From Takakia lepidozioides (Eukaryota > Plantae > Bryophyta), in assembly GCA_030704615.1 (NCBI GenBank), contig CM060732.1, positions 63,612,001 to 63,676,000 on the forward strand: a stretch of 64,000 nt of DNA, written 5' to 3'. Made by a program: the position numbers and the translations under genes. Numbering within the stretch: the stretch's first letter is position 1; the number at the start of each line of letters is the position of its first letter. This document shows, piece after piece, positions 13,004 to 49,059 of the stretch. The notes beneath the pieces were generated by a model. That model saw only the letters and a program-made list of their open reading frames with translations, was not told the DNA's origin and ran no database searches.

Positions 13004-15773
13004 ACCATTTGTCAGGCTTCTATGGTGGAAAGGATGCATTGAGGGTTTGTAGAAGCATTATTGTGCACCAAGGATTTGAGAGTTTGGAAAAGAGCTCTTG
13101 CATCACAAGAGAAGCGTCTTGTGTGTGGAGAAGATAGACACTAGGGTTTCAAGAGCAAGCTCTAGTTGTTCATGGTGTGAAAGAGAAGTCAAAGAGCGGC
13201 ACATGCTTGGGTTAGAAACACCATAGAAAGAGTACAACAAGGATAGCTTGAGGAGCATTGAGTAGCTCAAGAGAAGCTAAGAAGTGGTTGTTTTATCCAT
13301 GGTGAAATGAAGCTAGATGGGGTTTCATTTGGTTGACAAACAAGCAAGCTAAGGCGCTAGAAGGGAGTGCTTTTGCTAGTTCTATGAGTTCTTGGATTGC
13401 TCTTGGTGAAGCAAGTGGTTGACCAAGCAAGTGGCGCATGTGTGGAGCATGCTTTCCAAGTGCGGCTTCCAACTTCAAGCTTGAGGAGAGCTAGAAGGTG
13501 AAGGGAACAAGTTCATTCATTTGTGTATGAGGTGATGCTTATGTGGAGCATGTTTTCAGCCCATTGAGGCTTCTATTTTCAAGCCTTGGAGAGCAAGAAG
13601 AAAGGAAAAGGGCTGGTTTCCACTTAGGTGAAGGAAAAGCACTTGTAGAGTACATGCTTGAGTTGGGGCTTCAACCTTAAGCTTGAGGAGAGCACGACTC
13701 TTGAGCTAGCAAGTGAAGGGACTTAAATCTTACTCTTTGCATGAGATGGAGATGTATTGATGTTTGGAGAAGCAACACATAAAAGCCAAGAATGGAGTAT
13801 GTGTGTGGATGGCCAAAGAAGAGCACACGAATGAGTGCAAGACTTGGTTGCTTGTCAAACACTACAACAAATTGCGGCTTTTACGTCTCTGTGTTATGAC
13901 TGCAAATGCAGTCATGGAAGCCATTTACGACTTCCTGACTCTGCAGACGTAAAGACCTAGTCAGTTGTGACATGGCAGATATGACTCTCCAGGCTGGCTG
14001 TCACGTGGCGCCAGAGCAGCTGTGGGGGTAGTCATACACGCTGGCTTTACTGAATGACTGAACGGACAGTGTAGTCCATGTCAGCGGCTGTGCAAGAGTG
14101 GCACGTGCTCGATGCAGGAAATGACACGTGGCAGAGTGTTTAGCTCTCCATGACTGCGAACTATGACTACGGGTGTGCTAATCTGGTTGCAACACATGGC
14201 ACGTTGTAGTTTTTACACGTGGTCCATCAGCAGATAGACATGTGTCATGATGGGTGTTTTTTTGGGGTGTATTGCTATTTTTTTACATATTTGTATTTCT
14301 GCCACGTGGTGTAGTACTATTGGAGAGTGAAAATAGATGTAGTCATTATTATGACTATGATAGCAGTCATGTACATGTCTATTACAACAATGAAATATAA
14401 TATATAATACAAAGAGAACAAGGCAGCAAGACATAACTGCAACAAGCTGAGCAAAACCAAGAGATTGCATACCATCTCTATTTACCAATCTATTTATCAT
14501 TATCATTTTTGTTGCGATCTAAAAATACATTAAATAGTCGCATGTTCTCATGTGAATTATTTTGTCTAACTATAACACTTTGAAAAGTGTTCACCCAGAA
14601 TCTTCTAATTACTCATGTATTCCATCAATCTGCAACCCATCAAAAACGGCTTGCATGGCTTTAAGAATTACTACAGCAAGGACATTTGTTTGTTTTCCAA
14701 GTTCTTGCATAAGATGCACCAACCAATATTGCATTGTGAGACACTCACTCGCTATACTCCAAAGCGTCCAGGGAAGGTCACTGAGCAACCTGCCAAGGTG
14801 GAAACAATTAAGAGAATTATCTAATACCATATATGAAAAACCAATGCCAGTGTTGTTTATGGTAACTTTTATCCCATGTCCTAAACAAACCAAAGCAAAA
14901 AGGTTGGTGTGTATTGGCGAAGCCGTCAGATACTTCACAAAGAAACATGCACTAAAAATTAAACCCAGGATGATAGGAAGGTCACTCACGTTTATACAAA
15001 GACATCTTGCCCATTGCCCAGCACCCTGCGTCACCCACACTCTATCTCTATTCCTTCAGCTATCCATGCCTCTGCACAAATCAAGCATTCATCCTTACTT
15101 TGCTGCTAGCAGCTGACAATGACAGCCTACATTTGTTCTAGGAAACACCCAACTCAGCGTAGCACACTAATTCCTATGCTGAATTGCGTCTGCTACTCTC
15201 TGAAATGTAGCAGGCATTCACCTTTCTGCCCCGGTTGACCCATCAGTGACTGGGCTCAGATAAGTATTCATTCCACAGCTTCTCCTCATCTCTGTTACCT
15301 ATTTTTTGACACTTTCCTGTTGTCACATTGGCAGTATCATGTCAAAGTCACTCCAAACTAGATTCACTCAATCAGCTAACTTGCAGAATTGAACATGTAA
15401 ATTTAGGGCCGATTCTGATAAGAGGGAAAAACAGGGTGAAATGTGTTGAAGAAGATGCCTTCATTAGCAATGCCTGATTTTATCACTTGTGCCGCTGCTC
15501 CCAGTTGACCATCTACCCATGCAGGTTTCTTGTAGCTATTGATCCACAGGTAATCACAGGTAATCTTGTGCTTGAAATCTGGCCTTCTTGGATGAATCTG
15601 GACCCACACGAAATCCCTGCTCCTTCAGCTATCCATGCCTCTGCACAAATCATGCATACATCCTCGCCTTGCTGCTAGCAGCTGACAATGACAGCCTAGA
15701 ATTGTCAAAGCAAACACTAGCAGGGAAAACAGGGTGAAATATGTTGAAGAAGGTACCTTCATCCTTTTCTCCA

Positions 15774-16230
15774 TCATTTGCTTTCAGGTGTCCAAAGCCC
15801 CATCCCGCGCTCCTGCTCTGCACACCCTTCAAGCATCGCATTCCACGACACCACATCTAGTTCAGCCATAGTGTTGAACACTCCCTTGGCATCCTCAATG
15901 CTCCCACATTTAGCATACATGGCCACCAGAGCCATGTTCAGGATGACATCTGGTACAATTGCAGATTTGATGATGTCACCAGGGATCTCTTTGCCCTTTT
16001 CCAGGGCTGCAGACGCACTGCAAACGCACACAAACGTTATGTCGGCGGCCTTCACCCCTTCCCCCATCATTTTCTCAAAGGTTGGAGCCTCCATCCCGCA
16101 CCCCAGCTGTGCATACCCAGCAAGCATCGCACTCCACGACACCACATCTCGTTCATCCACAGTGTTGAACACTCCCTTTGCATCCTCAATGCACCCACAA
16201 TTGGCGTACATGTCCACCAGGGCAGGTCAA
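15774..16230 (-). pseudogene. PLS-class PPR repeat fragment captured in the CACTA element
   Basis: DMYANCGCIEDAKGVFNTVDERDVVSWSAMLAGYAQ...ITFVCVCSA...ALVAMYAKCGSIEDA are S/P/L PPR motifs. Confidence 0.9.
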
Positions 16231-17047
16231 AAGGACATGTGGTAATTTGACAGGCATTCACCTCCTGACTTGGCTATTCCCAACCCATCCTGCCATTGGC
16301 AAGAGATTCCACAGAAGCTGATAGTTGTCTGTTTGACTGTATAACTATGTATCTCTTGCTTTCTTACAGCTTGTACTATGACACGCGTAATGCTCTTGTT
16401 GTGTTGAATCATTTCACGCCTTCAGGTTTCAGAACAAACATTACCGTCTTTCTTTATCAGACATGTGCACCAAGACAGAATCTCACCAAAAGATTGTTGG
16501 TGTTCAACAGTACCATACATGAAGATAACTAGCACCAAAAGGGCATATGAAGCTTATTCTGCTCTCCACTGGTATTAGCTTGCACCAGGACTTTCAATGG
16601 CTGTCTTCCAGTCCACCCACGGCCCGCTGTAAATGGCTTGCAACCTACATATTTTCAAGAGAGCTGATTACCATGAAAATTTCAAAACTGGCTTTACAAA
16701 CCTAATAATTCAAGCATAATCAGCATTCAAGCTAAGGAAGCTTTACAAGCATCGTGTTGCGAGTAAAGCCTTGGCAATGTCACCAGGAAATCCTTGGCTG
16801 AATGGATGACACTGAAATAATGGAGCTTGAAATCCGGCCCTCTTGGACGAATTTGGGCCCACACTCTATCCCTGCTCCTTCAGCTATCTATGCCTCTGCA
16901 CAAAATCCTTCAGCTATCTATGCATACATCCTTGCCTTCTGCTAGCAGCTGACAATGACAGCCTAGAATTGTTCCAGCAAACACCCCCAACCCTACTTAT
17001 CAACGAGCAATGAGCTAACTTACAAAATTCAATATGCATCTCAGGCG

Positions 17048-17960
17048 TCTGATGAGAGGGCAAAACATGCTGAAATAGGTCGAAGAAGAAGGTGCCCTCA
17101 CCACACTGTCCGTGACCTTGTGTCATGACCCATGGAGGATTTGACCTTGTGTGTGATGCTTGTGTCTGTAGTCAGGTAATGTCGGATTGGTCAATGAGAA
17201 CCTGCACCACGGTGCAGCTGAGCAGGCAGACTTTGAAACACGGTCTGCTAAGACCAAGCTGACTCTCCCAAGAACCTTGTAAACATCAGGAAGAATATCA
17301 AATCATGGTACTAACAGGAGCCAACAACCCACATTTGCAGGATGGACAAAATTCTGCACATCGTACATTAAAAAAAAACCACACCTTGCGATTGCGGTCG
17401 CACCCTGAAGGATCTTAAAAAACTCATGCCAGCTCTGCTCCATGATTCAAATTCAGGGCCGAGTCTGATGAGAGGGCAAAATAGGCTGAAATAGGTCGAA
17501 GAAGAAGGTGCCCTCACCACATTGTCCTCGACCTTGTGTCATGACCCATGGAGGATTTGACTGAACATGAACCCAAGATGACCTCTAGTGTGTGCTGCTT
17601 GTGTCTGTAGTTAGGTAATGTCGGATTGGTCAGTGAGAACCACCACGGTGCAGCTGAGTGGGCAGAGATTGAAACACGGCCTACTAAGACCAAGCTAACT
17701 CTCCCAAGAACCTTGTAAACATCAGGAAGAATACCAAATCATGGTACTAACAGGAGAGCCAACCCACATTTGCAGGATGGACAAACTTCTTCACATCGTA
17801 CATTAAGAAAAAGCCACACCTTGCGATTGCGGTTGTCCCACCATCGTGAAGGATCTTTTAGAAACTCATGCCAGCTCTGCTCCGTGCTGTAAAATCAGGG
17901 CCGAGCGGGTAGAGATTGAAACACGGCCTGCTAAGACGAAGCTGACTCTCCCAAGAACGG
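17048..17960 (+). repeat. Direct repeat of about 415 bp (two copies plus a partial third) inside the CACTA
   Basis: TCTGATGAGAGGGCAAAA...GAAGAAGAAGGTGCCCTCACCAC...CTCATGCCAGCTCTGCTCC begins at about 17048 and again at about 17464. Confidence 0.85.
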
Positions 17961-18417: not shown

Positions 18418-19214
18418 ATTTTTTTTAAATCTTTGTTTTTTTTGGGTTTTTTTAATTCATTCTAGTGGTAAGAGTCTCCGTTTTTTTAAGATATAAATAC
18501 TCATATATTATATATATAACCAGAAAAGCATGTGTCGACACGTGTAGTCATGTAGTGATTCATCCATGTGATGATCTGGCATAATGCATTAGAGTGAGAG
18601 TCATGAAGTCATATGTCTGTCTTGCAATATGCACACGTCATTCTAGTGTAGCCATGACCGTGACTAGTAGTCATATCTGCCATGCCAATATTCGTGGTCA
18701 AACATGTTTGACCTGTGTTGCGCAGAGTCCGAAGCCATGCAGTCGCATATACGCCTTCTCCAGACCTACATTATGACTTCAAAAGCATTTTACGACTGCA
18801 AATGGCATTTCTGCCACAAATATGTCATGACTGCGCACCCATGGGAGTCATAAAAGCCGCAATCTGTTGTAGTGATATGAGGTAAAAAGCTTGATTCTTG
18901 AGCTCCAAAGAGAAGTGAAGCTTGTTGTGTGGCAAATGCATTGCTAGGTGAGATGGAATCAAGCTTGGTTGTGGCTTGAGGTGAAGAAGATCAAGGTAGT
19001 TTGCCTTGGTATCTCATAGAAGTCATGGATGCTTGAGGAGAGCAAGCATGAAGTTCATAGTGGCAGCCTAGTGACTGACTAGTTGTAGCCTAGTGGTTGG
19101 ACTAGTGGGTGGACTAGTGATGGACTAGTGATATACTAGTGTGTGGCGTGCACATGTGTTGTGTGATTTTGGACAGCGATGTAGTTGTGTAGCGATATGT
19201 ATGCGCACGACAGC

Positions 19215-19731
19215 TGTCAAGTTATTTTACCACTAGTGTGAAACTAGCTAGGAAATAGCTAGCTTTTACATATTGACATTTGGGATTGGCCCAAGTGTCA
19301 ATCCAGGGGTCAAGGCAGATTTAGGCCCTGGAGTGGTTATCTTCACGGCAAGCGCGGGAGGCTCATCTTTCTCGAGTTGAGCCTCACCGCGCCTAGCTAT
19401 GGCGCCGTAGTGTGGATTCCCCATGGCGTGGGGTGCACTTGGCTTGACTTGTATTTGAGTAATGAGTTTATATATGCATGAGTTTATGCTTCAGCTTTGT
19501 GAGCTCGCATGAGCTTGTACTTGTATTCTTCTTCGTAATCTATTGTGTGGACTAGTAACTGCCATAGTGGGCAGCATAGTGGCAGCCTAGTGACTGACTA
19601 GTTGTAGCCTAGTGGTTGGACTAGTGGGTGGACTAGTGATGGACTAGTGATATACTAGTGTGTGGCGTGCACATGTGTTGTGTGGTTTTGGACAGCGATG
19701 TAGTTGTGTAGCGATATGTATGCGCACGACA
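19215..19731 (+). mobile_element. LTR related to the 12341 and 48540-49004 LTRs
   Basis: TGTCAAG...CACGACA termini. Shares the blocks GGCTCATCT..GTTGAGCCTC and GTGGATTCCC..TTGGCTTGAC with the other two. Confidence 0.7.
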
Positions 19732-19959
19732 TAGGCCATCACCTGATGATGACAAACAATTGGCATACAAGGCTGATTTGCTTCCTCATGTGTCTGTGCA
19801 TATTCCACTGTGGGTACGGTTGGGAATTTGCATCGAGTAGCAGGCGAGTGTGTGCACCAAGCATGGCAGGAGGCCTTTCCATTGGTGAGTGAGGGGAGTT
19901 CAGTGACATCACCTGGACCTCATGAGTTAGCTCATTTGGACACAGTGCCCATTACCTGG

Positions 19960-20930
19960 CAACCACCCGACTCAGGGATTTGTTTGCTAGACTTGTTTGG
20001 AGGCATGAGCACTGGGCTTGCAGGAGTATTGCAAACAGGGATTAAAGTACGCAAGTACTTGTATGTGGAGAATGATGAGATAGCTCGGCGTATTTCTATG
20101 CGCCACATCGCCTTGCTCACACACCAGTATCCTGAGTTGTTGCCTCTATCAGCAATTCAAGGGTATCAAAAGGCCTTGTCAGCAGACATTACCTTGCTGG
20201 GGGCGGATGATTTGGACCGGCATGGTTCCATTGACTTGGTGATAGCTGAATGGCCTTGCCAATGACACTCTCCCGTAGGTCATGGGAATGGCTTGCATGA
20301 TGCACGATCGCATTTATTTTGGGAGATGTTGCGAGTGTTGCGTGACTTGCAGGTGAGGCAAGTGCAACCTCCAGCTTACATCCTGGAGAATGTTCCTCTC
20401 ATGGGGGATTCTCGGGCTAGGGTTATGGCCAGTGTGCATCAGATCCGGTCATGGATTGGACCAGCTTTATTGTTGGATGTAGCTGCAGTGGGTTCACGGG
20501 CACATAGGCCTAGGTTGTGGTGGACAAATCTTGCACCACCGGAGTTGCTCAAGAGAGCCTATGATTCCATTCAACGGCCACCCAACCTCACGGTTGAGGG
20601 CATTTTGGACCAAGGGAGGCAACCACAGAGGGTGCGACATGATGACCATCCACCTCTAGCAGTGGTAAATTGAGTGGGGTAGCCACGTGCAGCCTTGCCT
20701 ACGCTCATGAGCTTTCCCTCGTCTCATGCTTTTAGAGACAATGGTCCTGGGTTGATTTGGGACAGTGTGCTACAGCAATTGGTGGAGCCCAATGCGGATG
20801 AGCGAGAGCGGGCAATGGGATTTGCCACGGGCACTACAGCTGTGTCAGCTCTGTCAGAGGCATCACGACGCTAGGTGTTGGGTCAGGCAATGGATCTCAA
20901 TTGCTTGACATGGGTCATTGGCTTGTGCAT
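19960..20930 (+). pseudogene. C5 cytosine DNA methyltransferase domain (DNMT3-like) within pol
   Basis: Motif I LLDLFGGMSTG, II YVEND, IV DLVIAEWPCQ, VI YILENV, VIII RPRLWWTN, IX ERERAMGF and X LGQAMD, all in order and in one frame, with 4 stops. Confidence 0.9.
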
Positions 20931-23900
20931 GGGTGAGCAACGGAGATTGCAAGCATTAGTGGCTACTTCTGCACTTCTATTGGATATTGCACCATCTCTG
21001 CCAACAAGGACGGTGGAGGCAGTGAGTGGGGGCGAGCACAGGATCATGGGGTGCAAACACCCATGGCAGATATGGGATGAGATGCGCAAAGAGAGAGTCA
21101 TTGGATCTCTCAAGCAGCATTATGAGGAGTGGGGAGAGCCATGGACTGAGGATCAGTTGGAGGCCAAGGTGGCCAAGGTTTTTGAAGAGGTTGAAAATGT
21201 TTCTTGCTCAGAGGATGTTCTCAAGGTGGCTATGGCGGATCAAGTGGAGGCTACGCCATAGTTAGACTGGGCAGACAAGGCCCAAGAGGTTGCTATCTAG
21301 CAACCAAAAGATACGTCTCCTACCTCCAAGCCTGGTGTACCCAAGGTTGCAATCATTGAGGACAATTGGGAACCAGATGTTGGACCTACAGTCACCGGAG
21401 GAGAGAAACGGAGGATCCAGCAATTTTTAAGGGCTTATAGAAATTGCTTTGCCTTCAGTTTGAAGGATTTGGGGAGTTTGAAGGGTCAGGAGATTCGTAT
21501 TGATTTGGCAAGTGACACGCCAATCTTTCGAAGGCCCTACAGGTATAGTGATATGGAGAGGTCTTTGATCCAGTCACGGACTATGAAGTTGTTGAAAGCT
21601 GGATTGGTGGAGTTGTCAGGCGGGGAGTATGCCTCGGCAACGGTGATGCCAGCTAAGAAGGATATCTATGGCAATTGGACAGAAAGGAAGATGTGTGGGG
21701 ACTACCGTCCTGTGAACCGTCATACTAAGTCCGATAGATATGCCATGCCAACTCCAGATGAGATCTTTGATGCCATTGGGCATGCAAAGGTGTTTAGCAC
21801 ATTGGACTTGCGATCCGGTTACCACCAGTTGCTAATCAAAGAGGCTGACAAGCAAAAGACGACATTCTGGGGGATTGACCAACATGGGAAGGATTGTTTA
21901 TACCAATGGCGGTTCCAACCGTTTGGGTTGAAGAATGCTCCTGCAGAGTTTCAGAGGGTTATGGATAGGATTCTTGCAGGGCTAGACTTCGTCCGGTGCT
22001 ACATTGATGATATCATTATCTTTAGTGCCACGGTTGAGGAACATGAGAGATACCTTTTGAGCGTTTGAGCGTTTGAGGGCGCATGGATTGAAACTGCACC
22101 CTGGAAAGTGCAAGTTCTTCCACGATCAAATTGAGTATCTGGGCCACATGATATACCCTGGAGGATTGGGTGTTCAACAGACAAAAGTGGAGGCCATTTC
22201 ACGCATTTCACACCCTATAGATGTAAGCAGAGTTCGTGCTTTCATGAGGTTGACAAACTACTATTGACGGTTAGTCAAGGATTTAGCAGCATTGCAAAAG
22301 CTCTTACCAAGTTGACCAAGGTGGGTCAGGAGTGGCAGTGGGAGGAGGAGCAAGAGAAGCCTTTGAGGAACTCAAGGCTCGATTGGCTTCTACGCCTATT
22401 CTGAGGCGGCCTATTCGGGGGCGGTCTTTCCAGCTACATACGGAGTGGAGTATGCTGGGGATTGGAGCAGTGCTCACACAGGTGGATGATGAGGGAAGAG
22501 AGTTCATCGTGGCATATGCTAGCCGCTCGAGCAATGATGCCGAAGCAAAGTATAGTTCCTATGAAGGGGAGTGTCTGGCTGCAGTATGGGCAGTGACACA
22601 TTTTAGATGCTACCTCTATGGCAATCTCTTCACCCTTGTCACGGATCACCAACCATTGAAATGGTTGATGTAGTCAGACAAGCTTACATGAAAGCTTGCA
22701 CGGTGGGCACTTATGCTTCAAGAGTACGACTTCCAGGTGGTGCATCAAGTCGGTATAGTCAATCGGGATGCAGATGGATTGAGTCGTAATCCATGCACGA
22801 GCCAGCATGATGATACTAGAGCTCGGTGGCATGGTGAGACGGATGAGGAGATGGTGTCAGGATGGCATGCATCTGCCTTTTTGTGCTTCCTAGCAATGGG
22901 AGCTCAAGCTAGTCCATCCCATGCGATAGGTCATGTAGATAGCGTGCATGACGATCCAGAGATTAGTGAGGAGTTTGGTGGTGTTAAGGATGTGCATGAA
23001 GATGCAGCAGTGTTGGCATACCTTCATACCGGAGAGACAGTAGCTAATATGACTGTTAAGGAGAGAGATTGGGTCCTACAACAAGCCAAGAGATTCAAGT
23101 GGGAGGGGACTCACCTACTCCGAGTATGGGAGGATGGACGAGTGAGGATTGTGCCTCATCCAACACAACGAACGCGATTGATATGCCATGCCCATGAGGA
23201 GTTGGGACATTTTGGGGTGTGACACACTCATAGTTTGCTGCAAGGACAGTATTGGTGGCGGGGCATGCACACGGATGTGCAACAATTAGTGGCAAGTTGC
23301 ATGGTGTGTGATAGAATGCGGGCTTCTTTCAATGCATCTACTCCACAATTGCATCTTTTACCCATTATGGGTTTGGGCTATCGTTGGAGTCTTGACTTCG
23401 CAGGCCCATTGCCACTAACTATTCGCCATAACAAGTATGTGCTGGTGATGGTGGAATATCTCTCCAAATGGATTGAACTGGTGGCATTGCCTGACAAGGC
23501 AAGTAAGGGGGCTGCGTATGCATTCTTAGATCGACTGCTTAGCCAATTTGGTGCTCCAGCCGAGGTACTCACGGACCAGAGGAGAGAATTCTTGGGGGAG
23601 TTTCAGGCTTTGTGTGAGCAAGCCTTGATAGATCACCACACTACTTCTCGGGATCATCCCGAGGCTGATGGCTTGGCCGAGAGGGTTGTGCAAACAGTCA
23701 AGCGAGGCTTGCGCAAGTATGGCTTGCAGAAGGGACACTTGGGAGATTGGGACCTTCAGCTACCTTGGTTGGCCATGGGCTACAGGTTTAGCAAACAAGC
23801 ATCACTTGCCTCGTTCTCGCCTTATTTCCTTCTCTTTGGCCGAGAGCCAGATTTGCCTACATCTATTCGCAGGGAGACTGCAGTAGTCCTCAACCTTGAT

Positions 23901-24279
23901 GATCCGGATGTGTGGACACAAGCATGTGCCCAACGGGCAGAGTTGTTCAAGAGGGTCATGCCTATGGCTTTTGAGAACCTTGCTATTGCCCAACACCGAG
24001 ATACATTGAGAAACTCCACTATACGTGGAGGGGGATATTGGCTAGGTGTTCGGCGTTTCCATCTTGGGTTTATGTGTATCTGCAGCAGACAGCGCTTACG
24101 ACCTTGGATGTCACAGCAGGTCGTGTGATTCTAAGGGTCCGGGAGGTGTTGCCTTCAGGAGTGTTGATTCTGGAGGGTCGAGATGGCATGATATGGAAGG
24201 ACCATGTGCGCAATTGTGTGTCATGTCACCTTCCACATGTGGATGGGAAGATAGATCTCAACCTTGCAATGGTACCTGC

Positions 24280-24350
24280 AGGGTTGCGTTGCATGCTATG
24301 TGGGCATGCTGGTGGTGCCGCGACCATGTTGGTGTGTAACAAATGCTCAA
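24280..24350 (+). pseudogene. N-terminal half of a PHD finger after integrase
   Basis: CMLCGHAGGAATMLVCNKC fits C-x2-C-x11-C-x2-C with the typical MLxC motif. Truncated by the copia LTR. Confidence 0.7.
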
Positions 24351-24714
24351 TGTTGGAAGTAATTAAACATATCTAGAAGACAAAGTCTTGAAGGCCAAAG
24401 GTTTAGAAGTCTAAGAGACTATCTTGTTTAACTCACCTTTGGAAGGTGAATGGTTAGAAGGTGGATGGTCACCATAGTGGAAGTGAAAGTGACCAAGTAG
24501 GACTTCCTAGAGACCTTCTTGTATAAGCTCGGGGGTAAAGCCACTAGTCTAAGTGTAAGAGTATGATGGTGGCTTCTATGGTTGGGAGGAGAGTTTTAGT
24601 TTTAGCTTTAGTCTAAGACTTTAGTTCTTGTTCATGTTCTTGCTCAATTCTAACATGGTATCAGAGCCATTCTTATCTAGGTGAGAGTTGGTAGTTGAGA
24701 TTGAGAGAACGATT

Positions 24715-25219
24715 ATGGCTGGAGCGTCGTCTTCTAGCAATCATCCTTCTATGTCTATGACGAGTGCATTAGATGTGAGAGTGGAAGATCGATTCAATGG
24801 AGCTAACTATCAGACCTGGAAGTTTAAGATGGAGATGGTCCTTCTACACAAAGATCTATGGGGAGTGGTTGATGGATCAGTCCCAAGACCTGACACTATT
24901 ATTGGCCAAGCCATGAGACATGAAAGATCAGAAAGCAAGAGCTCACAAGCTTGAGAGACAATCAATTGCATCTTATTATAAGTGCTAAGCAAATGCTAAG
25001 GATGTTTGGGACAAGCTAGCAAGCATATATGAGATGAAGGATGTCACATCGCAAAGTGTATGCGACGCAAAAGTTCTATGGTCTGAAGATGACCAAGTCA
25101 GACTCAGTTGAACAACACTTGAATTTGTTTTGTGTGTTGCGAGATCAACTAGTCTCTGTGGGAACTAATGTGACTGATGAACACGTCGTAGTGGTGTTAT
25201 TGGCAACCTTACCTGAATC
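24715..25219 (+). pseudogene. Copia gag 5' part
   Basis: RFNGANYQTWKFKMEMVL...LLATLPES. Continues at 30268 as PESYDGFV once the insertion is removed. Confidence 0.85.
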
Positions 25220-25904
25220 CCTGGGGGGTGCACTCTTTATAAAATGTCCGTATCACGTGCGTTCGCCGCCTAATAAAAAAACCTCCTATATACGGGTCCT
25301 TGGATCATTTATACCCCCTCTGTACATACATTTTGAAGATTATAAAACCCCATCTTGTAAATATATAGAAATTTTTAATTTTTAAAAAGTACCGCTTTCT
25401 GTATGTATATTTTCTTTTTCAATAATTAAAAAATACCCTCAAATATGTATATGTATGTTTTTTATATTATATCAAGTTTATTCATTTAAAAATAGAATAA
25501 AATCTAATAAATTAATTAAAAAAAATCTTTTTGCCCTCGATAAAACTTGCTGTGGAATCATAATCAGATGCAGAGAGGAAAGGGACATTGTCAATGCCCG
25601 ATGTGCAAGAGGCCTGAAGAAAGTTTCTATTTTCTGATATACAGTCCTGGGTATTTTCATCAGAGAGTGACCCTCTTGAAGACCATCAAGACCTAGTCAC
25701 TGCACCTCTGTTCATCAACTAGGACAGTTTCTGAACTTGTTCTACAGTTTCAACCTTCGCAAGGTCCAATTATGTTCAAAACCTAATGTTGAGAATTCCT
25801 CTCCAAAAAGAGATTTCGTGCGCCTTTGCTGCCACTGTTGGAGTCCAACCTGACTCGCAGCTGACAGAGTTCAATACATTCAATTAGGTGACAAACATTT
25901 CATT

Positions 25905-26170
25905 TCACCAATACTCCCCACAAGAACAAACATCATTTTGGAAGTGGTGAAAGCGGTTTGCATCCCGTACAACAATCTCTTGCTTAGCTATCTTTGAGAT
26001 GAATTTGGTGGCTGTGTGGCAATCACCACACATCCGAAGATTCCTGATGATCCCCAAAGACATCCCAGAGGGTGTGTTGATAAGCCCAAAAACAATGGCC
26101 AGCTTCTCATTGTGGTGGCAAAGAGACGATTTTTTAAGCTCTTCCTCAACATCATGCAATGCAAAGCGGG
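25905..26170 (-). pseudogene. C-terminal half of a DYW deaminase domain
   Basis: LHDVEEE...HHNEKLAIVFGL...NLRMCGDCH...VVRDANRFHHF...CSCGEYW-stop. Confidence 0.92.
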
Positions 26171-27885
26171 CTTCACCCCTTCGCACATCATTTGCTCATA
26201 GGTCTCCAAAGCCTCCATCGCGCGCCCTTGCTGTGCATATCCTGCAATCATCGCACTGCATGACAGCACATCTCGTTCAGCCATACCGTTGAACACTCCC
26301 TTCATACATATCCACGAGGGTATTGTTCATAATGACATTTGATACAATTGCAAATCTGACAATGTCGCCATGGACCTCTTTGCCCTTTTTCAAAGCTGAC
26401 ACGCTTGCACACACATTGCAAATGTACACAAACGTGATGTGGTCGGGCTTCACCCCTTTCCCCCATCATTTGATCATAGGTCTCCAAAGCCTCCATACCA
26501 CGTCCCTGCAAGCACCGCACTCCACGACACCACACCTCGTTCAGCCATGGAAACTCCTTTCGCATCTTAATGCACCCACATTTGGCATACATGTCCACCA
26601 GGGGAGTGTTCAGAATGACATCTGGTACAATTCCAGCTTTGACAATGTCACCATGGACCTCTTTCCCCTTTTCCAGAGCTCGCAGGCTTGGACACGCATT
26701 GCATCCTGCCAACATTATATTCCACGTGATCAAAGATCGTTGAGGCATTCTGTTGAACACTTGGTGAGCATCAATGATGCTCCCGCACATAACATACATG
26801 TTGACAAGGGTGTTGAGTAGAAAAACATTGTGGACTCCCTCTCTTGATCCTCTTTCAGAAGTTGTGGTCATGGTTGAGGTGCCTGATTTTATCAACTGTG
26901 CCGCTGCAGCTGCTGCCTTTAGTTGACCATCTACCCATGCAGGTTTCTTGTAGCTACTGACCCCCACATGGAATCAAGGTAATCTGGAGCTTGAAGTCCA
27001 GCCCTCTTGGATGAATTTGGACCCACACTCTATCCATGCTCATTCAGGAAAAAACAGGGAAAAACTTTGATAACAGGGAAAAACAGGCTGAAATGTGTTG
27101 AAGAAGGTACCTTCATTAGCAGCGCCTTATTCTATCAAATGCATTGCTGCCGCTGCTGTTTCCAGTTGACTATCTACCCACGCAGCTTTCTTGTAGCTAT
27201 TGATCCGCAGGGAATCAGAAGTAATCTTGTGTTTAAAATCGACCTCTTGGATGAATCGTGTTCCTCGACACCACCTCGTTCAGCCATAGTGTTGAACACT
27301 CCCTCCGCATCCTCAATGCTCCCACAATGGCATACATGTCCACAAGGGTATTGTTCATAATCACATCCGGTACAATTCCAGCTTTGGTGATGCAACCATG
27401 CACCTCTTTGTCCTTTTCCATGGCTGCAGGCTTGCACACGCACTGCAAAGCACACAAACATGATGTGGTCGAGCTTCACCCTTTCCCCCATCATCTGCTT
27501 TCAGGTCTCCAAAGCCCCATCTCGTGCTCATGCTCTGCACACCCTGCAAGCATCACATTCCACGACACCACATCTCATTCAGCCATAGTGTTGAATACTC
27601 CCTTGGCATCCTCAATGCTCCCACATTTGGCATACATGGCCACCAGAGCAATGTTCAGGATGACATCTGGTACAATTACAGATTTGATGATGTCACCAGG
27701 GATCTCTTTGCCCTTTTCCAGGGCTGCCAGACGCACTGCAAACGCACACAAACGTTATGTGGGCGGTTTCACCCCTTCCCCCGTCATTTGCTCATAGGTC
27801 TCCAAAGCCTCCATCCCGCACCCCTGTTGTGCATACCCTGCAAACATCACAATCCACGACACCACATCTCGTTCAGCCATAGTGT
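26170..27885 (-). pseudogene. Scrambled PLS PPR repeat fragments with non-PPR spacers
   Basis: Repeated LVDMYAKCG, ERDVVSW, ALETYEQM and LEKGKEVHGDI motifs with frameshifts, interleaved with KKPAWVDGQ-type spacer segments. Confidence 0.88.
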
Positions 27886-28299
27886 TCAGAATGACAGGTA
27901 ATCTGACAGGCATTCACCTTTTTGCATTCACCTTTTTGCCTCGGTTGTCCCACCATTGACTGGGGTCAGAAAAGTATTCATTCCACAGCTTCTCCTCATC
28001 TCTGTACCTCTTTTAGGATACTTTCATGTTGTCAGTTGGGAGTATCATGTCAAAGTCACTCCAAACTATCAAAGATTCACTCAACCAGCTAACTTGCAGA
28101 ATTCAATATGGATATTTAGGGCCGATTCTGATACGAGGGAAAAACAGGGTGAAATGTGTTGAAGAAGGTGCCTTCATTAGCAACGCTTGATTTTATCAAT
28201 TGTGCCGCTGCTGCTGCAGCTTCCACTTGACCATCTATCCATGCAGGTTTCTTGTAGGTAATCATAAGTAATCTGGAAAACGGCTCCTGGCAAATGACC

Positions 28300-29165
28300 T
28301 TCATCTTCCCAGACAATCTTCTCAGCTCAGCATGGATTTCCTTAATTCTGGGATGCAACTTGTCATCTACAACGAAGGTGTGCACCCTGTTGCAAACCTC
28401 AATGCAGCAGCGACCTGGCTCCTTTTCAACCCCTCTTACCTTCATCATTCTTCTCACCTTTACAGTATCAACCCACCTGCCAGCTACAACATAGATGTTT
28501 GATAGCAACATAAGTCGCGACATCCTGTTCATTCCACTTGAGGATAGATGTTGCCGCACGTTCAGGTCCACTGCCTCATCCAGTTGTCCCGCACGTCCAA
28601 GAAGGTCCACCATGCAGCCAAAGTGCTATACTGTCGGAGTGACACCATGATCTTGAATCAGGGAATCGAAGTAGCGTCTTCCTTCATTCAGAAGGCCAGT
28701 GTGGCTGCATACAGAGAGAACACAAACTGCTTCAAGCCGTTCTTTTGCATTCCTTCAAATTGTTGCAGGACCTCCCTATGACAACCATGCTGTGCATATC
28801 CTGCGATCATTGCATTCCACGACACCACATCTCATTCAGCCATATTGTCGAACACTCCCTTTGCATCCTCCATGCACCCACATTTGGCATACATGTCCAC
28901 CAGGGCAGTGTTTATGATCACATTTGGTACAATTCCAGCTCTGACGATGTCGACATGCACCTCTTCGCCCTTTTCCAGGGCTGCCAGGCTTGCACACGCA
29001 CTGCAAACGCACACAAACGTGATGTGGTTAGGCTTCACCCCGTCGCACATCATTTGCTCATAGGTCTCCAAAGCCTCCATCCCACGTCCCTGCTGTGCAT
29101 ACCCTGCAAGCACCGCACTCCACGACACCACACCTCGTTCAACCATAGTGTCGAACACTCCCTTT
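28300..29165 (-). pseudogene. PPR P/L/S, E/E+ and PG-box fragment
   Basis: CMVDLLGRAGQLDEA, LLSNIYVVAGRW and KEPGRCCIEV...HTFVVDDKLHP...LSGKMK. Confidence 0.9.
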
Positions 29166-29704
29166 GACTTTGTAAATGAAGATAGGTCCCTTTGATGGGG
29201 CATGGATTGAAGTGGTTTCGCAGTCCTACTTGTTGTTTCCTCCTCGCCATGTCCATCTTCTGCTTTGGGGCGGGGTCTAGGGCTGGCAAGGTTTTAGCAA
29301 CCAGTGTCATGACTCTCTCTCTCCTCCTCTTTGTTCTGCCCAATTTGGGTGCAGGGTCTATGGCCACAAGGCTATCATGAGTACTTTCTTCCTCACACAC
29401 ACCTCTTCCTGTTCCGCCCCAACTGGGCACGGACTGGGTAAATGGCCACAATGCAATGGCATCCGTCGTATGAGTACATTTTTCTCTCTCTACTCTTGGC
29501 AATAGACTGAAATTGAAATGCAGGTCGGGGAGTATACCTTTGAACAAACAAACAGATGCAGAGATGAGAGGTAGCCTGTCAATGCCCGACGTGCGGGAAG
29601 CCTGAAGACTAAACATTTTCTGATACATTTCCGGTGTACACTCCCATCTGAGAGCGACCCTCTTCACTTACATCAAGAACAGATCCTTGCACAGCAGTTC
29701 GCCA

Positions 29705-29915
29705 AGATGCACCCACATTTTGCAAACATGTCCACCAGGGTATTGTTTAGAATGACAGCTGGTACAATTCCAGCTCTGAAGATGTCGCCATGGACCTCTT
29801 TCCCCTTTTCCAGAGCTGCCAAGGCAGTGTTTAGAATGACATTTGGTACAATTCCAGCTTTGACGATATCCCCATGCACCTCTTTGCCCTTCTCTAGGGC
29901 TGCCAAGCTTGCACG
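29705..29915 (-). pseudogene. PPR L/S motif fragment, partly duplicated
   Basis: ASLAALEKGKEVHGDIVKAGIVPNV occurs twice, then LVDMFAKCG. Confidence 0.8.
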
Positions 29916-30267
29916 ACGCCACATCTTGTTCAGCCATCTTTGCGGAAGGGAAGGCAAACGCGGGAGTGGAGATGAGAGGAGGAGAGGGAAAAGAGAAAGT
30001 CGCGGGAGGGAAGGGGAGAAAGATCGCGGGGAGAGAGAAAAAAAAAAAACCAAACAAAAGGAATTGATCCCGCGGTGCATCGCAGCCTAATCGTCGTTCT
30101 TACCACTACACTACCCCTGAAAACTCAACAACCCCTTCCTGTAATATTATATTTAAGGTGTTTTAGACCCCCCTCTGTATGTATAATGTTGTACATGGGG
30201 GGGTTTAAAATACCCCTCCTGTGCACGCACGTGGCTGGTACATTTAATGAGGAGTGCACCCCCCAGG

Positions 30268-32270
30268 CCTGAATCCTATGATGGTTTTGTGGTGTCTCTA
30301 GCAGGACAAACCAACTTAACTATTGATGTTGTCATAGGACTTCTCCTCAAGGAGGAAACAAGAAGAAAAGGTCAAGGTACGTCTACAGAAGTAGACAGAG
30401 CTTTATTCACAGGCAAGACTGGAGTAGTCTTGAATAGAAGACTCCCTTCACATGTGTCTCAGAAGTCCCAGAGATTTTAGAAACCTCAATCTAGCTCAAA
30501 GATCAAAAAGGCCAAAGTAAAGTGTTTTTATTGCAAGAAACTTGGTCACATGATCAAGGATTGTAGAAAGCGCATTGCAGATGAGCGCAACAGAGAGGGT
30601 CAAGGGAACATAGCTACTCATCAGAGGAACGCTATTCTATTTGTTGTGTCTCTCTCAGTCATTACTAGACAGAAGCATGTGTGGTATGTTGATTCAGGAG
30701 CATCTCAATATATGAGTTCAGAGAGAGAGCATTTCTTATCCTATAGATCTCTTTCACCTACACAATATGTTCTTTTGGGAGATGATAGCAAGCATGCCAT
30801 TAGTGGGGAAGGCTCAGTCTCTTATGCTCAATGAAGGGGAAACCATAGAGGTGGAAAATGTCCTACATGTCCCTACTTCAACAAAGAACCTGTTGTCTGT
30901 AAGGCAAATTGTTGCAAAGGGATACAAAGTGGTATTCCAAGATGAGAATTGTACTATCACAGATAGCTCAGGAGCTGTGGTAGCAAGAGCTATTCTTGAT
31001 AATTGCTTGTATAGATTACAACATCATGTCTCTAGTGCTCTTACCACATTTTCACCACAGTTGGGATCTACACCTGTCATGTCAGAAACAGAGTTGTGGC
31101 ATAGAAGGTTAGGTCATGTGAGCATTAAGAAGTTGAGACAGATGCAACTCTCAAGCCATCTTGTGGAAGGACTACCATTGAAGGAGATGAGCGATATGCG
31201 TCTCTGCAAAGGTTGCTTGGAAGGGAAGCAACATCGAGGTCAATTTCCTAAGGATGGTGGACGAAGAGCCATAAATATATTGGATATTGTACATTCTGAT
31301 GTGTGCGGGCCAATGCAAACCATATCACTTGGAGGAGCAAGGTACTTTGTGACATTCATTGATGATTTGTCAAGGAGGGTTGTGGTGAATTTTCTAAGGC
31401 AGAAAAGTCAAGTGCTAGAGAAATTCAAGGAGTTCAAAGTACTTGCAGAAAAACAAACTAGAAAGCCTCTTAAGATTTTGAGATCTGACAATGGTGGTGA
31501 GTACATCTCAAAGGTTTTCAATCAGTTTTGTCAAGAGAATGGAATAGCTTGACAGCTTATTGTTCCATATACACCTGAGTAGAATGGTGTAGCTGAGCGG
31601 ATGAATAGATCGCAGCAAGAATATGCAAGGAGCATGTTGAAAGAAGTGAATCTTTCAAATCATTTTTGGGCAGAAGTTGTTGGCGCTGCAGCATATCTTC
31701 ACAACAGAATACCTACCAAATCAGTGTTGGGAAAAACACCAGAAGAGGTATGGAGTGGTCAGAAGCCTAGTGTGGCTCATTATAGGATTTTCTGGATGTC
31801 GTGCATGTGTCCATATTCATACTCAGAAGCGAAGGAAACTTGACTCCAAATTAGAAGGATGCATCTTCATTGGCTACACAGAAGGTGTGAAGGGATATAA
31901 GTTGTTCAATGAGACAACTAAGGCTGTCAAACACAGCAGGGATGGCTCTAAGCTCATTCCCATGTCATCTTCTCCCACTACCAAAGAGGGTATGAAGCCT
32001 TCATCAAACACTACGTCCACCATTTCCAAGAGGAGTCTTATGAGGAGCCAATACAAGAGATGGCTGAAGCAAATGATGAGGTGTTCAACTTGATGGAGTT
32101 GATAAAGGAGTCAAAGTTGGTGAACCACTTGTTGATATGGACTCTAGAGATGAAGTTGAAGATGTGCCAATTCTAAGGAGATCTCAGCGGGAAACCTAGT
32201 AGGCTGATTACATCTATGAGTGCCATTGAAGCTATGGAAGAAGCATCACAAATGGTTGAGCCTGCTACAC
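30268..32270 (+). pseudogene. Copia gag 3' part, protease and integrase up to the RT start
   Basis: Zinc knuckle, DSGAS, KNLLSV, LWHRRLGH, integrase core and GCIFIGY. Ends at EPAT. Confidence 0.9.
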
Positions 32271-32805
32271 ATTTACTCGATCTCTGCTGATTTGAATACC
32301 AATACAAAACCGAATCTCACCCATGTCAGTCATGGCAAACTCAGCACTCAATAGTGCTTTGGTTTCTGGCAACAACCTTTGACGATCGTTGGTGACAATG
32401 ATTGTGTCATCCACATATAGAGCTATGACCACAAATTGCTCTCCCATCTTTTTCACATAGATGTTTGTGTCAGCAATGCTTTGCTCAAATCTTGCCTTTA
32501 AGAGGTAAGCATCGATCCTGGCATACCAAGCTCGAGAACTTTGTTTGAGTCCATACAAACTCTTTTGCAGCTTACACACAATATCACTTCCTCCTTGTAC
32601 AAACCCTTTAGGTTGTCTCTTGTAGATCTCTTCTTGTAGTTCTCTATTCAGAAATGTCGTCTTAACATCCATTTGATGAACTTCGTGATCATGTTGAGCT
32701 GTAAGAGCTAACAACACTCTGGTAGAAGAAATCTTCACCGCTGGTGAGAATGTTTCATTGTAATCCACTCCTTGAATTTGTGCATAGCCCTTAGTTACAA
32801 GACAC
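32265..32805 (-). pseudogene. Copia reverse transcriptase fragment, inverted
   Basis: LVTKGYAQIQGVDYNETFSP, HQMDVKTTFLN, LYGLKQSSRAW and LYVDD on the minus strand. Confidence 0.92.
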
Positions 32806-33756
32806 GCTGCTTGGGACTTAGACACTTTTACGGGTTCTGTGGAGTACCCTTATTTTTTGCACAGACTTACAAATGGTACACTTGGACCAGCTGTCGAACG
32901 GCTTTTACTCACCCATCCCTTCACTATCCGAGGTGGAAACTCCAAGATAGAAGAGTTGGATATCTCTAAGCACTCAGCCCGCTCAGTACTATCAGTCATG
33001 ACCTGCAGCTAGTGAATCATGGTTGTGCTTCCCATTTGTATTCCTTCTTGCCTTCATGTTATCAATTTACCTTATCTGATACTGAAGCATCAGATTGCTT
33101 CAGTATCTACTTAGTTCCAGTTAATCATGCATTCATTTCACAACTTCACTCATGTCTCTCTACATAGTGTGATTGTATCGAATAAGTATCAGATTATGAT
33201 TTATCAGGTATCAGGCCAATGCCATGGTGACTCTAATCCGCCCTACAGTATCACTACAGCTCTGCATGTAATAGGCATCTACTGTTCATCTTTCCTCCTT
33301 CTCTATGCTCTCGTTCTTGCTCTCCGCCTGATCTCCTCTTCCCATGACCCAGTAGCGTTCCCCGTGAAGTGATCCTCTTTCCGTTGCCGCTCTCCTTATC
33401 TGCCCGCAAGCTGTTCTAACCACCTAACTAACTAACCGTCATCCCTGAAGTAACACGTTCTCTCTGCAGTTATCGTTCCCTCACAGTCGTTCCCTGTCTA
33501 TGATAACTGTTCCCCATGTACTGTGACAGGCTGTGTCAAGTTGTGCCGAGCTGTGACTGGCTGTGTCAAGCTTTGCCGAGCTGTGACTGGCTGTGTAAGG
33601 CTGTGTCGGGCTGTGACTGGCTGTGCCGGGCTGTATAACCCCCCTAAAGCCTGCTGCTGCCACCCCTAAGGCTCCTGTTGGTCTCAGTCTGCGCAAAAAT
33701 TAAGGGTACCCCACAGAACCCGTAAAAGCGTCTAAGTCCGAAGCAGCCCTCTAACA
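32806..33756 (-). mobile_element. 3' LTR with 62-bp subterminal inverted repeats and 10/30-bp internal tandem repeats
   Basis: Begins TGTTAGAGG on the minus strand, right after a polypurine tract at 33757-33775. 32806-32867 is an inverted copy of 33686-33747. CTGTG repeats at 33521-33635. Confidence 0.7.
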
Positions 33757-33789: not shown

Positions 33790-35350
33790 TCACGGTTTAC
33801 TGTTTGGGATTAGCAAACCTTTGTGAATGAGCACCCTTCTGACGGTGAGAGTCTCGTGAAGGACTCCGTGTGCGAGCCCGAGTCCTGTCATTGGTTGACG
33901 GAGATGATTGAGCACTACCTGGAAATGTCTGACCCTCCTTTGGCTAATAACGAGGTAACCTCTCAGGCATAGGAGATCCCCGTCGTTTCTTCTCTGCCAT
34001 CTGAAGTGCATAGTCCTCTGCCATGTCAAAAGAGTCCGCTGAAGAAACAGTAGTGTTTGAATCCTCGTCTCCCCTTAGGTGTTTTAACGGCCGAACTTTA
34101 AGTGGAATCCTGTGTGGCATACAATGTGGTCCGACCACATCTGGAAGTTTAAATTGTACAACTTGCTGTAAGCGCTGGCAAACAAAATTAGTGAACGTCC
34201 TCAACTCCTTATCTGTATAGGTAAGAGGTGTGCCAATGACTTTGGAACAGTGTAAGTATTTCCATGCCTCATGTCCCTTAAAGAAAATATCCTCAGGGCC
34301 GAATTTCTGTGTTGTTAAATTGTTCCAAGCCGAATGAAACCATGAACGAAGTTGGGAATCCTTCTACATCATAACTTTTGCATCATATAGGTACATATGA
34401 GGTTACACTGAAGGTAAGACCCAATGATCCCCACTGGAATAACTCAGAAATCGGGATTGCATCCTCTGCTGCTCAATGTGATAACGTGCCAGAAAACAAG
34501 CAGCATAGTATAATCCACAGCCCATGACAATATTTGATACCTCCTTGGTCTTGGTATAAATGTACCCATGTACAACTTGGAAGGCAATTAATTCCTTCAA
34601 CATGGTACCTGCTTCAGACCAGTACCTCGCAAAGTGATGATCCTCAATGGGTCGATTGTTCGGAAGAACCTTAGTCCTAGTTGCCAGTGGCAGCCAAATG
34701 CGCATGATCTGGTAGTAATGTACCAACGATTGCGGAGGACTAAATTCCTTCCAAGCCAAATCCAACACAATGGGAATTTGGTTGAAGGGCATAATCATAG
34801 CCCGACTGTACTCCCGTGCAGCATGAGTCTTAGGTGGGTTAAAAGCAGCATCCCCCCATACCTCAGGCTGTGGTGTGGCTGTAGTAACAACAGGGTCAGC
34901 TACCTGCACAGTCACTTGCAGTGGTATTGGTACCACTGGCCCTTCTACCACTGGCATCTCCTGCACCCCTTGCGAAGAAGACTGAAAAATTAGAGTCCTG
35001 GCATGTAAATAAGTAGCCATTAACTGCTCCTCAGGTACAAAGACTCTCTTGTCAATATTTGAACTCAGGTCATCCACCTGAGTCTGCAGGCCTTCTACAT
35101 CCTCCTGTAGCTCCGCTATCCTACTATAGACATTGTCTATAGTAGTTGTGGCAATGTTTTGCACCTGCAGTCTGAGCTCATTCATCTCGCCCTGGGTGAG
35201 CTTCCGTGGTGCTTTGCCTTCCACCGGCCCTTGTGCTAACCATACCTGCATAAGGTGGTTATCCACCAAGTCGTGTGTGGCACCCCTGAGAGTCTGCTCC
35301 TCCGTGAGTCTGTACACATCTAACTGTTGCTGTAAAGCCTCCATGCGCTT
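33790..35350 (-). pseudogene. Additional ORF of unknown function (about 500 aa) between gag and PPT
   Basis: The 335-aa ORF at 34403-35410 continues in frame through a few stops into the 33944-34204 ORF. It has a coiled-coil segment (IAELQEDVEGLQTQVDDL) and no pol motifs. Confidence 0.65.
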
Positions 35351-35360
35351 TGCATGAGGT

Positions 35361-41976: not shown

Positions 41977-42010
<34 letters not shown>

Positions 42011-49004: not shown

Positions 49005-49059
49005 ACCCGGTTACCTTGTGGAGAGGGGGTTAAAGACATGTTCATGACCGGTTGAGTGT

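Follow-up and report, generated by a model that had tools for sequence, protein, structure and literature searches.

The 64,000-nt stretch of the Takakia lepidozioides genome analysed here (the window; coordinates are positions in it and refer to the forward strand unless otherwise marked) contains, between 19732 and 24350, a decayed Ty3/gypsy retrotransposon that carries a DNMT3-like cytosine methyltransferase (DNMT) and part of a PHD finger. A DNMT-bearing Gypsy element was already known in Klebsormidium; what is added here is the range of the family among land plants, a conserved stop codon between the DNMT and the reverse transcriptase (RT), an apparent self-priming device, the anatomy of a junction internal to the repeats and the likeness of the PHD finger to a class of histone readers. 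DNMT-bearing retrotransposons, previously reported in a dinoflagellate and one charophyte, are now found in liverworts, peat mosses, the land plant of the window and chlorophytes.

The Takakia copy

A single reading frame (19747-22068) holds the C5-methyltransferase motifs I (19987), II (20062), IV (PCQ, 20254), VI (ENV, 20386), VIII (20497), IX (20800) and X (20875) in this order and, thereafter, RT as far as YIDD (22000). The frame is interrupted by ten stops, seven of them in the section running from motif I to where the RT piece ends, and by no frameshift. The first-pass annotation, made from the letters alone, had described precisely this arrangement in a Ty3/gypsy element having a DNMT and a PHD finger of its own, and the profile check leads to the same result: DNA_methylase (PF00145) is matched in this frame with 39.7 bits, above the cut-off of 22, RVT_1 (PF00078) is matched with 64.7 bits, and RNase H (RH), Integrase_H2C2 and rve are matched in 22374-24050.

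The preserved part begins with a remnant of the linker between protease (PR) and DNMT (19732-19959; tblastn to the Marchantia proteins P0003 and P0039 from 19813-19828, 19732-19810 by eye), followed by the DNMT3-like C5 cytosine methyltransferase domain with its motifs I-X in order (19960-20940), that has four premature stops, by RT (21364-22320; PF00078 and tblastn), with a frameshift near 22060-22070, by RH (22422-22727; PF17917, 117.9 bits) and by the integrase (INT, 23160-24068; PF17921 and PF00665), that comprises an H2C2 zinc domain, a DDE core with all three acidic residues and a C-terminal part. The last domain is the first half of a PHD finger with four Cys (24290-24350), recognised by homology to the relatives; taken alone it gives no Pfam match, and the stretch running into it shares 73% of 92 aa with a Marchantia protein whose PF00628 PHD is complete. 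The finger is cut by an unrelated Copia long terminal repeat (LTR; 24351-24655, 305 bp, TG...CA, by sequence comparison), which is followed by a primer-binding site (PBS) presumably of the tRNA-Met type, and its remaining part was not found elsewhere in the window. Further frameshifts lie near 22320-22356 and 24050-24070 and, with its ten in-frame stops and the truncation of both ends, this copy is dead, as had been recognised from the start.

As many as 31,674 contigs of one sequencing run, possibly the window's own sample, map to 18800-25000, and the family is abundant in the host genome; no copy number is derived from the summed contig depth, which does not measure it. At the stops 20872 and 23220 more than 95% of the summed depth of the other copies shows another letter. 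Contigs of two runs guessed to be RNA cover parts of the element and have no bearing on its expression.

A family with two architectures

Close relatives (55-70% identity), annotated as hypothetical proteins, are found in Marchantia polymorpha, M. paleacea, Riccia, Calypogeia and several Sphagnum species. A search of the full protein library gave 244 clusters at E < 1e-30, and distant members bearing names come from Closterium, Klebsormidium nitens, Scenedesmus and Hariotina. The family is confined neither to the window genome nor to embryophytes, relatives being present also in chlorophytes and in Closterium; ferns, lycophytes, hornworts and seed plants are not represented among the DNMT matches listed under a name, which are a minority of those obtained. 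The annotated “DNMT genes” of bryophyte genomes may include elements of this type. Since the Marchantia relatives have open DNMT domains, the role of a transposon methyltransferase is testable in a genetic model. Natural proteins with an open DNMT domain are Marchantia P0003 (Mp_4g09160), Calypogeia P0004 and Scenedesmus KAF8056149.1, to which the contig L131 (see below) can be added.

The domain order was established on moss-metagenome loci (the best 80 of 107, 60 of them distinct, called moss by their likeness to Sphagnum proteins). Among the loci with room for the domain concerned, RT comes after the DNMT in 53 of 58 and PR before it in 56 of 62, while the integrase is followed by a PHD of the complete C4HC3 type in 20 of 21, so that the recurrent order is Gag-protease-DNMT-RT-RH-INT-PHD; ten loci possess every domain, all being decayed. 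That the association of DNMT and RT is a chance juxtaposition, or that the DNMT is a neutral passenger captured once in the window genome, might be suggested by the many stops of this copy and the loss of both its ends, but is almost certainly wrong: dozens of loci and several plant lineages share the order, the two groups separated in the DNMT tree are also those of the RT tree, and the DNMT is under purifying selection (see below). A repeat forming ~900-bp inserts in many moss copies was recognised as unrelated and as not being part of the element.

Two architectures can be distinguished. In the streptophyte-type members the DNMT is placed between PR and RT, and 45 of the 342 proteins examined (near-duplicates within clusters being counted), chlorophyte ones included, display the full order RT-RH-DNMT-INT-PHD. 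In the DNMT tree the latter group constitutes one side of a branch (support 99), and the RT tree gives the same split for 46 of its 47 members (support 97), the pairwise identities of RT and DNMT being correlated with a Spearman coefficient of 0.49 (trees of 72, 59 and 56 rows, cluster duplicates and partial domains left out). The simplest reading of these sequence relationships would be a single old capture of the DNMT, which was moved later. In a further DNMT tree, which included no host DNMT3, all 52 retroelement rows lie on one side of four phage DNMTs (support 100), the position of K. nitens being an open fork. Matches to phage enzymes score up to 85 bits in BLAST, a similarity about as high as that to DNMT3, though the folds favour DNMT3; the origin of the domain may thus be phage-like. 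Kinship with the Klebsormidium element, to which the first-pass annotation had pointed, is suggested by the 36% identity over 323 aa (E 4e-53) between the window DNMT and K. nitens GAQ93235.1, a protein not confirmed as a copy from PMC5890265 (the publications cited here were available in part, and what is said of them refers to those parts).

As to classification, the order PR-RT-RH-INT with a DDE integrase is that of Ty3/gypsy, and so are the TG...CA ends, the short (4-5 bp) target-site duplications (TSDs), the polypurine tract (PPT) and the PBS of the moss relatives, the window copy being devoid of both ends. Instead of two full identical LTRs the elements have split repeats, arranged as A-coding-B(-A-B). 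The Pfam scans gave no tyrosine recombinase family, a DDE integrase and TSDs being present instead, which places the elements outside DIRS/Ngaro, and no chromodomain was detected in the 54 relative proteins scanned with Pfam.

Viral contigs yielded no RT relative and distant DNMTs only (E 2e-14 or worse). Prokaryote genomes gave two strong matches, L131 and L132, each a whole retroelement on a short contig of a metagenome-assembled genome (MAG); both are read as eukaryotic contaminants. L131 (1-9285) is a circular 9.16-kb contig of a cyanobacterial MAG that contains a whole family member with one B|A junction, a PPT and the self-primer, and is likely a collapsed young eukaryotic repeat. L132 (1-10362), from a Minisyncoccia MAG, is of the algal type RT-RH-DNMT-INT-PHD with two overlapping open reading frames (ORFs) and ends at the palindromic junction described below; its protein is entered under a bacterium in NCBI. 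Some algal-type polyproteins (P0121, P0161, P0177; P0061, P0336) have an extra G-patch in the DNMT-integrase interval or a Tudor-like domain after the PHD.

The methyltransferase domain

The best match of the window DNMT among solved structures is, by sequence, human DNMT3A (E 1e-11), with DRM2 (3e-4) and bacterial enzymes behind. The structure modelled for a natural relative that shares 69% of its residues with the window domain has a mean predicted local distance difference test score (pLDDT) of 93.3 and supersedes an earlier model (15 sequences, pLDDT 57.8); its fold matches DNMT3B (Z 28.4, root-mean-square deviation 2.6, 279 aligned), DNMT3A (27.1) and M.MpeI (25.3). By its best PDB sequence and fold matches and by the order of its motifs the domain is thus an unrearranged DNMT of the DNMT3 type.

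The catalytic Cys is kept in all 68 retroelement rows, the Glu of motif VI in 66 and the two Arg of motif VIII in 68 and 67, respectively, the median DNMT identity among the aligned members being 41%. These residues, together with the motifs for S-adenosylmethionine binding, predict an active C5 DNA methyltransferase. It may be objected that the DNMT serves mainly to silence the element's own genomic copies or acts non-catalytically, by binding nucleic acids, to limit the harm done to the host. This view, raised in the discussion of PMC5890265, is in keeping with the inactivity of the Klebsormidium domain in yeast and with a selection weaker than that acting on RT; nevertheless, the retention of the catalytic Cys, Glu and Arg in very divergent members and the abundance of the family in its host render it decidedly unlikely.

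Comparison of the window with 58 moss copies gives a pN/pS of 0.33 for the DNMT (dS being near saturation), 0.24 for RT, 0.18-0.24 for RT/RH/INT and 0.60 for the DNMT-RT linker, the locus L073, belonging to a distant subfamily, being left out of the dN/dS set. These values indicate that the DNMT, which had been suspected not to evolve neutrally, is under purifying selection, albeit more weakly than RT. The observed/expected ratio of CpG (0.46 in the window element, 0.19 in Copia and 1.08 in another Gypsy) is uninformative on self-methylation.

A conserved stop between the DNMT and RT

The in-frame stop TAG-CAA-CCA at 21298-21306, identified by copy comparison, occupies a site at which all 45 distinct moss copies covering it have a stop (29 TAG and 16 TAA), as does L131, in which two long open frames are parted by that stop alone; at none of 1,367 other codon columns does the share of stops exceed 38%. 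Being kept across the family, the stop is probably not due to decay. In this it differs from the other stops of the window copy. Its context is TAG-CAA-CCA in the window and in the locus L025 and TAG-CAA-TCA in L131, to be compared with the type I readthrough consensus UAG-CAR-YYA (PMC3542737). A search for conserved RNA structure 3' of the stop was negative, the z score against mononucleotide shuffles being -4.7 in L131 alone and -0.6 to -1.4 in three others.

Thus, ORF1, which the stop closes, consists of Gag, zinc knuckle, PR and DNMT, and RT-RH-INT-PHD is likely made by readthrough. Many natural proteins of the family end 60-190 aa past the DNMT. The single Pol polyprotein carrying both methylation writer and chromatin reader, that had been postulated originally, does not apply to the land-plant subfamily, where the conserved stop parts Gag-PR-DNMT from RT-RH-INT-PHD. 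Since ORF1 ends in the DNMT, the enzyme is predicted to be produced at the level of Gag and to be packaged with the RNA, the stop acting as a predictor of enzyme dosage. Gag-level dosage of the DNMT appears to be a derived trait, because in the more distant streptophyte-type proteins a single ORF is found.

Split repeats, predicted self-priming and the palindromic junction

The complete moss elements have TG...CA ends and 4-bp TSDs, which are exact in three of six cases, with one mismatch in two and with two mismatches in one. Their layout, A-coding-PPT-B-A-B, is complete in L034, in L071 and, to the contig end, in L003, most other copies being A-coding-B. No tRNA-type PBS is evident by eye after A in the moss elements; the 15 nt that follow A pair with a site inside A, ~28 nt 3' of a TATA box. 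This pairing amounts to at least 12 of 15 positions in 11 of the 21 moss 5' ends (two duplicate pairs among them), the maximum reached by the controls being 11 in 252 15-mers, and is preserved in three different sequences (those of the mosses, of L131 and of the window host); what follows the end of A is complementary to 19362-19376 in 16 contigs of the sequencing run X1. In L052 (13289-13570) an A-B junction is accompanied by 16 extra bases starting like the PBS; they may be a primer site that was kept, or may reflect a deletion inside the element.

From the positions of PPT and PBS it follows that the replicating repeat is B-A. At the junction of its two parts stands the palindrome GACAGCTGTC, which is present at 19209 of the window, in L003, L071 and L131 and, with one change, in L034, its first 8 nt being found at the contig end of the algal-type L132. 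Sequence comparison suggests that the integrated ends come from this palindrome inside the B-A repeat, and we infer that the integrase would cut there, on circular or linear cDNA. In this way the split repeats, observed but left unexplained in Klebsormidium, gain a replication model in which a DDE integrase acts at an internal junction. The A-coding-B copies may also have arisen through later B-to-B recombination.

The CG next to the palindrome is kept from L132 via L131 and the mosses to the window and is lost in many old copies. Its persistence with that of the palindrome, as well as the fact that the orientation A-coding-B-A-B alone is observed (four distinct 3' ends with B then A, against none of 21 5' ends preceded by B), might be explained if the DNMT, in a manner resembling restriction-modification, marked the palindrome or the adjacent CG, thereby choosing the junction that the integrase cuts and shielding the integrated one. 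A Fisher test of the end asymmetry (p 0.046) had as input counts rounded by hand and is given no weight. Such a role is highly unlikely, however, being entirely deduced; the best fold matches are general CG methyltransferases, and the loss of the CG from many old copies also speaks against it.

The B-A-B sequence of the window (19056-19731), a young 3' end that belongs to another member of the family, replaced the 5' half of the copy under study; since it adjoins at 19731, this copy has neither Gag nor protease. B-A-B consists of a 5'-truncated B repeat of the younger member, ending in CA (19056-19212; 99.4% identical to 19575-19731, its last 40 nt being 82.5% identical to the moss B repeat), of the palindromic B-A junction (19209-19218; CA, 2-bp spacer, TG), whose recurrence in L003, L071, L131, L034 and L132 makes it the likely attachment site of the integrase, of the A repeat (19215-19541) with the predicted self-primer site 19362-19376, contigs of other copies starting at 19215, and of a second B repeat (19543-19731), whose CA is the right end of the inserted element and, as indicated by contig junctions, severs the DNMT copy from Gag and protease. 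The family PPT stands before 19542 in 19 contigs, and in 18 another sequence is present before 19731 that, by eye against P0004, reads as the PR-DNMT linker. The window harbours three more traces of the family: a fragment of Gag and zinc knuckle from a second copy (35391-36661, minus strand; 61% identity to Marchantia P0003, E 7e-98, PF03732 weak), the Gag start of a third copy (49477-49767, plus strand; 72% identity to P0003, E 8e-42) and the A-like 5' end of a further, diverged member, beginning with TG (48831-49005, minus strand; 69% identity to 19215-19384).

The PHD finger and the site of insertion

The C4HC3 zinc ligands of the PHD are present in at least 73 of 74 relatives at each position, the window keeping the first four Cys only. 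The best matches among solved structures are the PHDs of CHD4, PHF12, ATXR5, KDM5 (PHD1), PHF21A, BAZ2 and UHRF1, with no ING, BPTF or TAF3 PHD among the 60 matches listed. PHDs of the CHD4, PHF12, ATXR5, KDM5 PHD1 and PHF21A type are readers of unmethylated H3K4, and the resemblance suggests that the retroelement PHD belongs with them. A PHD is carried also by REM1, a Gypsy element of Chlamydomonas.

The first-pass annotation had left two targets for the DNMT, the element's own cDNA and the insertion site. According to the second possibility, a readthrough polyprotein tethered by its PHD would methylate the new copy and its flanks. The chlorophyte-type elements do hold DNMT and PHD in one Pol (45 of 342 proteins with the full RT-RH-DNMT-INT-PHD), and the combination of an H3K4me0-type reader with a DNMT3 domain has its counterpart in host DNMT3 proteins, which carry an ADD domain. 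In the moss/window subfamily, on the other hand, the stop splits the DNMT from the PHD, the upstream protease would part them, and the moss PHD is under little constraint within the family; insofar as writer and reader occur together only in a minority readthrough product, methylation of the cDNA is favoured over a PHD-guided action at the insertion site, the latter being unlikely to be where the enzyme mostly works. Because of its weak constraint within the family, a targeting role of the moss PHD is to be taken as a lead.

Proposed mode of action

We are inclined, if only slightly, to believe that the DNMT is packaged in bulk in the virus-like particle and methylates the element's own cDNA before integration. 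The sequences themselves show the order of the domains, the conserved stop, the split repeats, the TSDs of 4 bp, a PBS complementary to the LTR and the conservation of the catalytic residues; the steps that follow are deduced. Transcription would start inside A, ~28 nt after the TATA box, and end in the second A; most ribosomes would terminate after the DNMT, few of them reading through to produce RT-RH-INT-PHD. The 5' end of the RNA would prime the minus strand, as in Tf1, the plus strand being started from the PPT before B, and the resulting cDNA should have B-A at both ends. The integrase would then cut the internal CA-GC-TG palindrome rather than the cDNA ends, cleavage of an end-joined circle yielding A-coding-B-A-B and cleavage of a one-repeat circle, or of linear DNA at two sites, yielding A-coding-B. 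The PHD of the integrase would likely bind unmethylated H3K4 tails and steer insertion away from active promoters. A copy methylated beforehand would resemble resident DNA, and its marks would be kept by the maintenance enzymes of the host. That related domains, those of SymbioDIRS-Dnmt3, methylate CG in yeast (PMC5890265) is in agreement with this mechanism.

A number of observations weigh against it. The Klebsormidium retrotransposon DNMT was inactive in yeast, a result that its authors regard as inconclusive (PMC5890265). The Pro that precedes the catalytic Cys in motif IV is Glu (ECQ for PCQ) in 33 of the 68 retroelement DNMTs and, among the moss copies, w (dN/dS) is 0.61 for the DNMT as against 0.36-0.42 for RT/RH/INT (RT 0.42), the corresponding values for shared variants being 0.44 and 0.11-0.30; this weaker constraint in part represents decay after insertion. 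None of the moss copies has an open frame. The stop context of 40 of the 45 moss copies is CAA-CCC, one base away from the CARYYA consensus, and DNMT and RT are in one ORF in the chlorophyte-type elements and in the streptophyte-type proteins P0463, P0470 and P0465, so that, with K. nitens being of the same kind according to the authors of PMC5890265, Gag-level dosage is not universal. For 10 of the 21 copies the self-primer pairing reaches no more than 11 positions. Were a two-repeat circle cut at random, A-B-A-coding-B should occur as well; this form is unseen in the 21 5' ends, none of which has a preceding B, and random cutting of the circle is therefore doubtful. Finally, the moss PHD has a w of ~0.84 among 15 copies and has lost the acidic residues of the algal PHDs.

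The broadest formulation would see here an ancient Ty3/gypsy clade of the green lineage, from chlorophytes to bryophytes and the present host, that produces a DNMT3 at Gag dosage via readthrough, primes itself, cuts its circular cDNA at an inherited palindrome and delivers pre-methylated copies into H3K4-unmethylated chromatin, and that acts in early land plants, wherever it is abundant, as a so far unrecognised source of de novo methylation; taken as a whole, this picture must be considered doubtful.

Relation to known systems

The nearest known element is KnitGypsy-Dnmt3 of Klebsormidium nitens (PMC5890265), with which the present family shares the Gypsy domains, a DNMT of the Dnmt3 type, the DIRS-like repeat layout A-coding-B-A-B and purifying selection; the K. 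nitens protein GAQ93235.1, of the type Gag-knuckle-PR-DNMT, has its DNMT in the same slot as the window family. The two differ in that the authors put the DNMT in the RT ORF, whereas the land-plant family has a conserved stop in between, and in the land-plant host and high abundance of the latter (PMC5890265). The text of that paper, as far as available, makes no mention of a PHD, of self-priming, of a palindromic junction or of TSDs; its figures may show a PHD or a wider range. SymbioDIRS-Dnmt3 of Symbiodinium likewise combines a Dnmt3 domain, for which CG methylation in yeast is reported, with split direct repeats in a retroelement, but it has a tyrosine recombinase and a dinoflagellate host, in contrast to the DDE integrase and 4-bp TSDs found here (PMC5890265).

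In Chlamydomonas, Gypsy-7a_cRei is a green-algal Gypsy element whose PHD was proposed to guide insertion; it has an ordinary LTR pair, and no DNMT is named in the available part of the report (bioRxiv 10.1101/2022.06.16.496473). In Tf1/Sushi and in the moss Tcn1, too, the PBS pairs with the 5' end of the RNA of the element itself (PMC6317226). These are chromoviruses with ordinary LTRs; in the 54 relatives scanned here no chromodomain was seen. The integrase of foamy virus, also a DDE enzyme, cuts a palindromic CA/TG junction to give processed ends; there the junction forms upon joining of the cDNA ends, whereas here it is fixed and inherited inside the repeat (PMC1180852). The EpiLTRs of Cymbomonas and Euglena are LTR elements that also unite a cytosine DNMT with a chromatin reader, yet their enzyme is DNMT4-related, with DAM and chromodomain, and the authors separate them from “streptophytes (Gypsy-DNMT3)” (bioRxiv 10.64898/2026.05.21.726589).

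DNA methylases of transposons are stated to be absent from land plants such as tracheophytes in a review (PMC6338049). No account of the family in land plants or chlorophytes was found in the literature searched, from which most subscription journals were outside and which included the available parts of PMC9033089, PMC6317226, PMC6453930, PMC11982613, PMC9477723 and PMC11899658, and the same literature gave no paper on readthrough or self-priming in the DNMT-Gypsy family.

Other features of the window

Decayed tandem PLS-type pentatricopeptide repeat (PPR) genes with E/DYW remnants lie at 15491-16245 and 25700-30100 (minus strand), and such remnants agree with the land-plant host that had been surmised from the letters. 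One PPR fragment gave matches of 33-45% identity, the best being to Ginkgo, Physcomitrium, Cryptomeria and Sphagnum. Upstream of the element, a 416-bp unit is present in two and a half direct copies (17047-17958). Copia sequences at 30716-32849, with integrase on the plus and RT on the minus strand, belong to a rearranged or doubled element. Just 3' of the second family Gag fragment there are ORFs of 338 and 139 aa of no clear Pfam family (33944-35419, minus strand), and upstream of the fragment at 36661 an 825-bp tandem duplication (37110-38764, 96.5%) contains unannotated ORFs. An array of 53-nt palindromic repeats occupies 40850-45290, with large inverted arms (43364-43991 vs 44037-44577) and longer repeat units flanking it; directly after the array, two open frames of 386 and 285 aa without Pfam match (45389-47942, plus strand) possibly represent a stop-split transposase. 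Finally, a decayed unrelated Gypsy pol at 54600-56700 has a CpG observed/expected ratio of 1.08 and is thus undepleted, unlike its neighbours.

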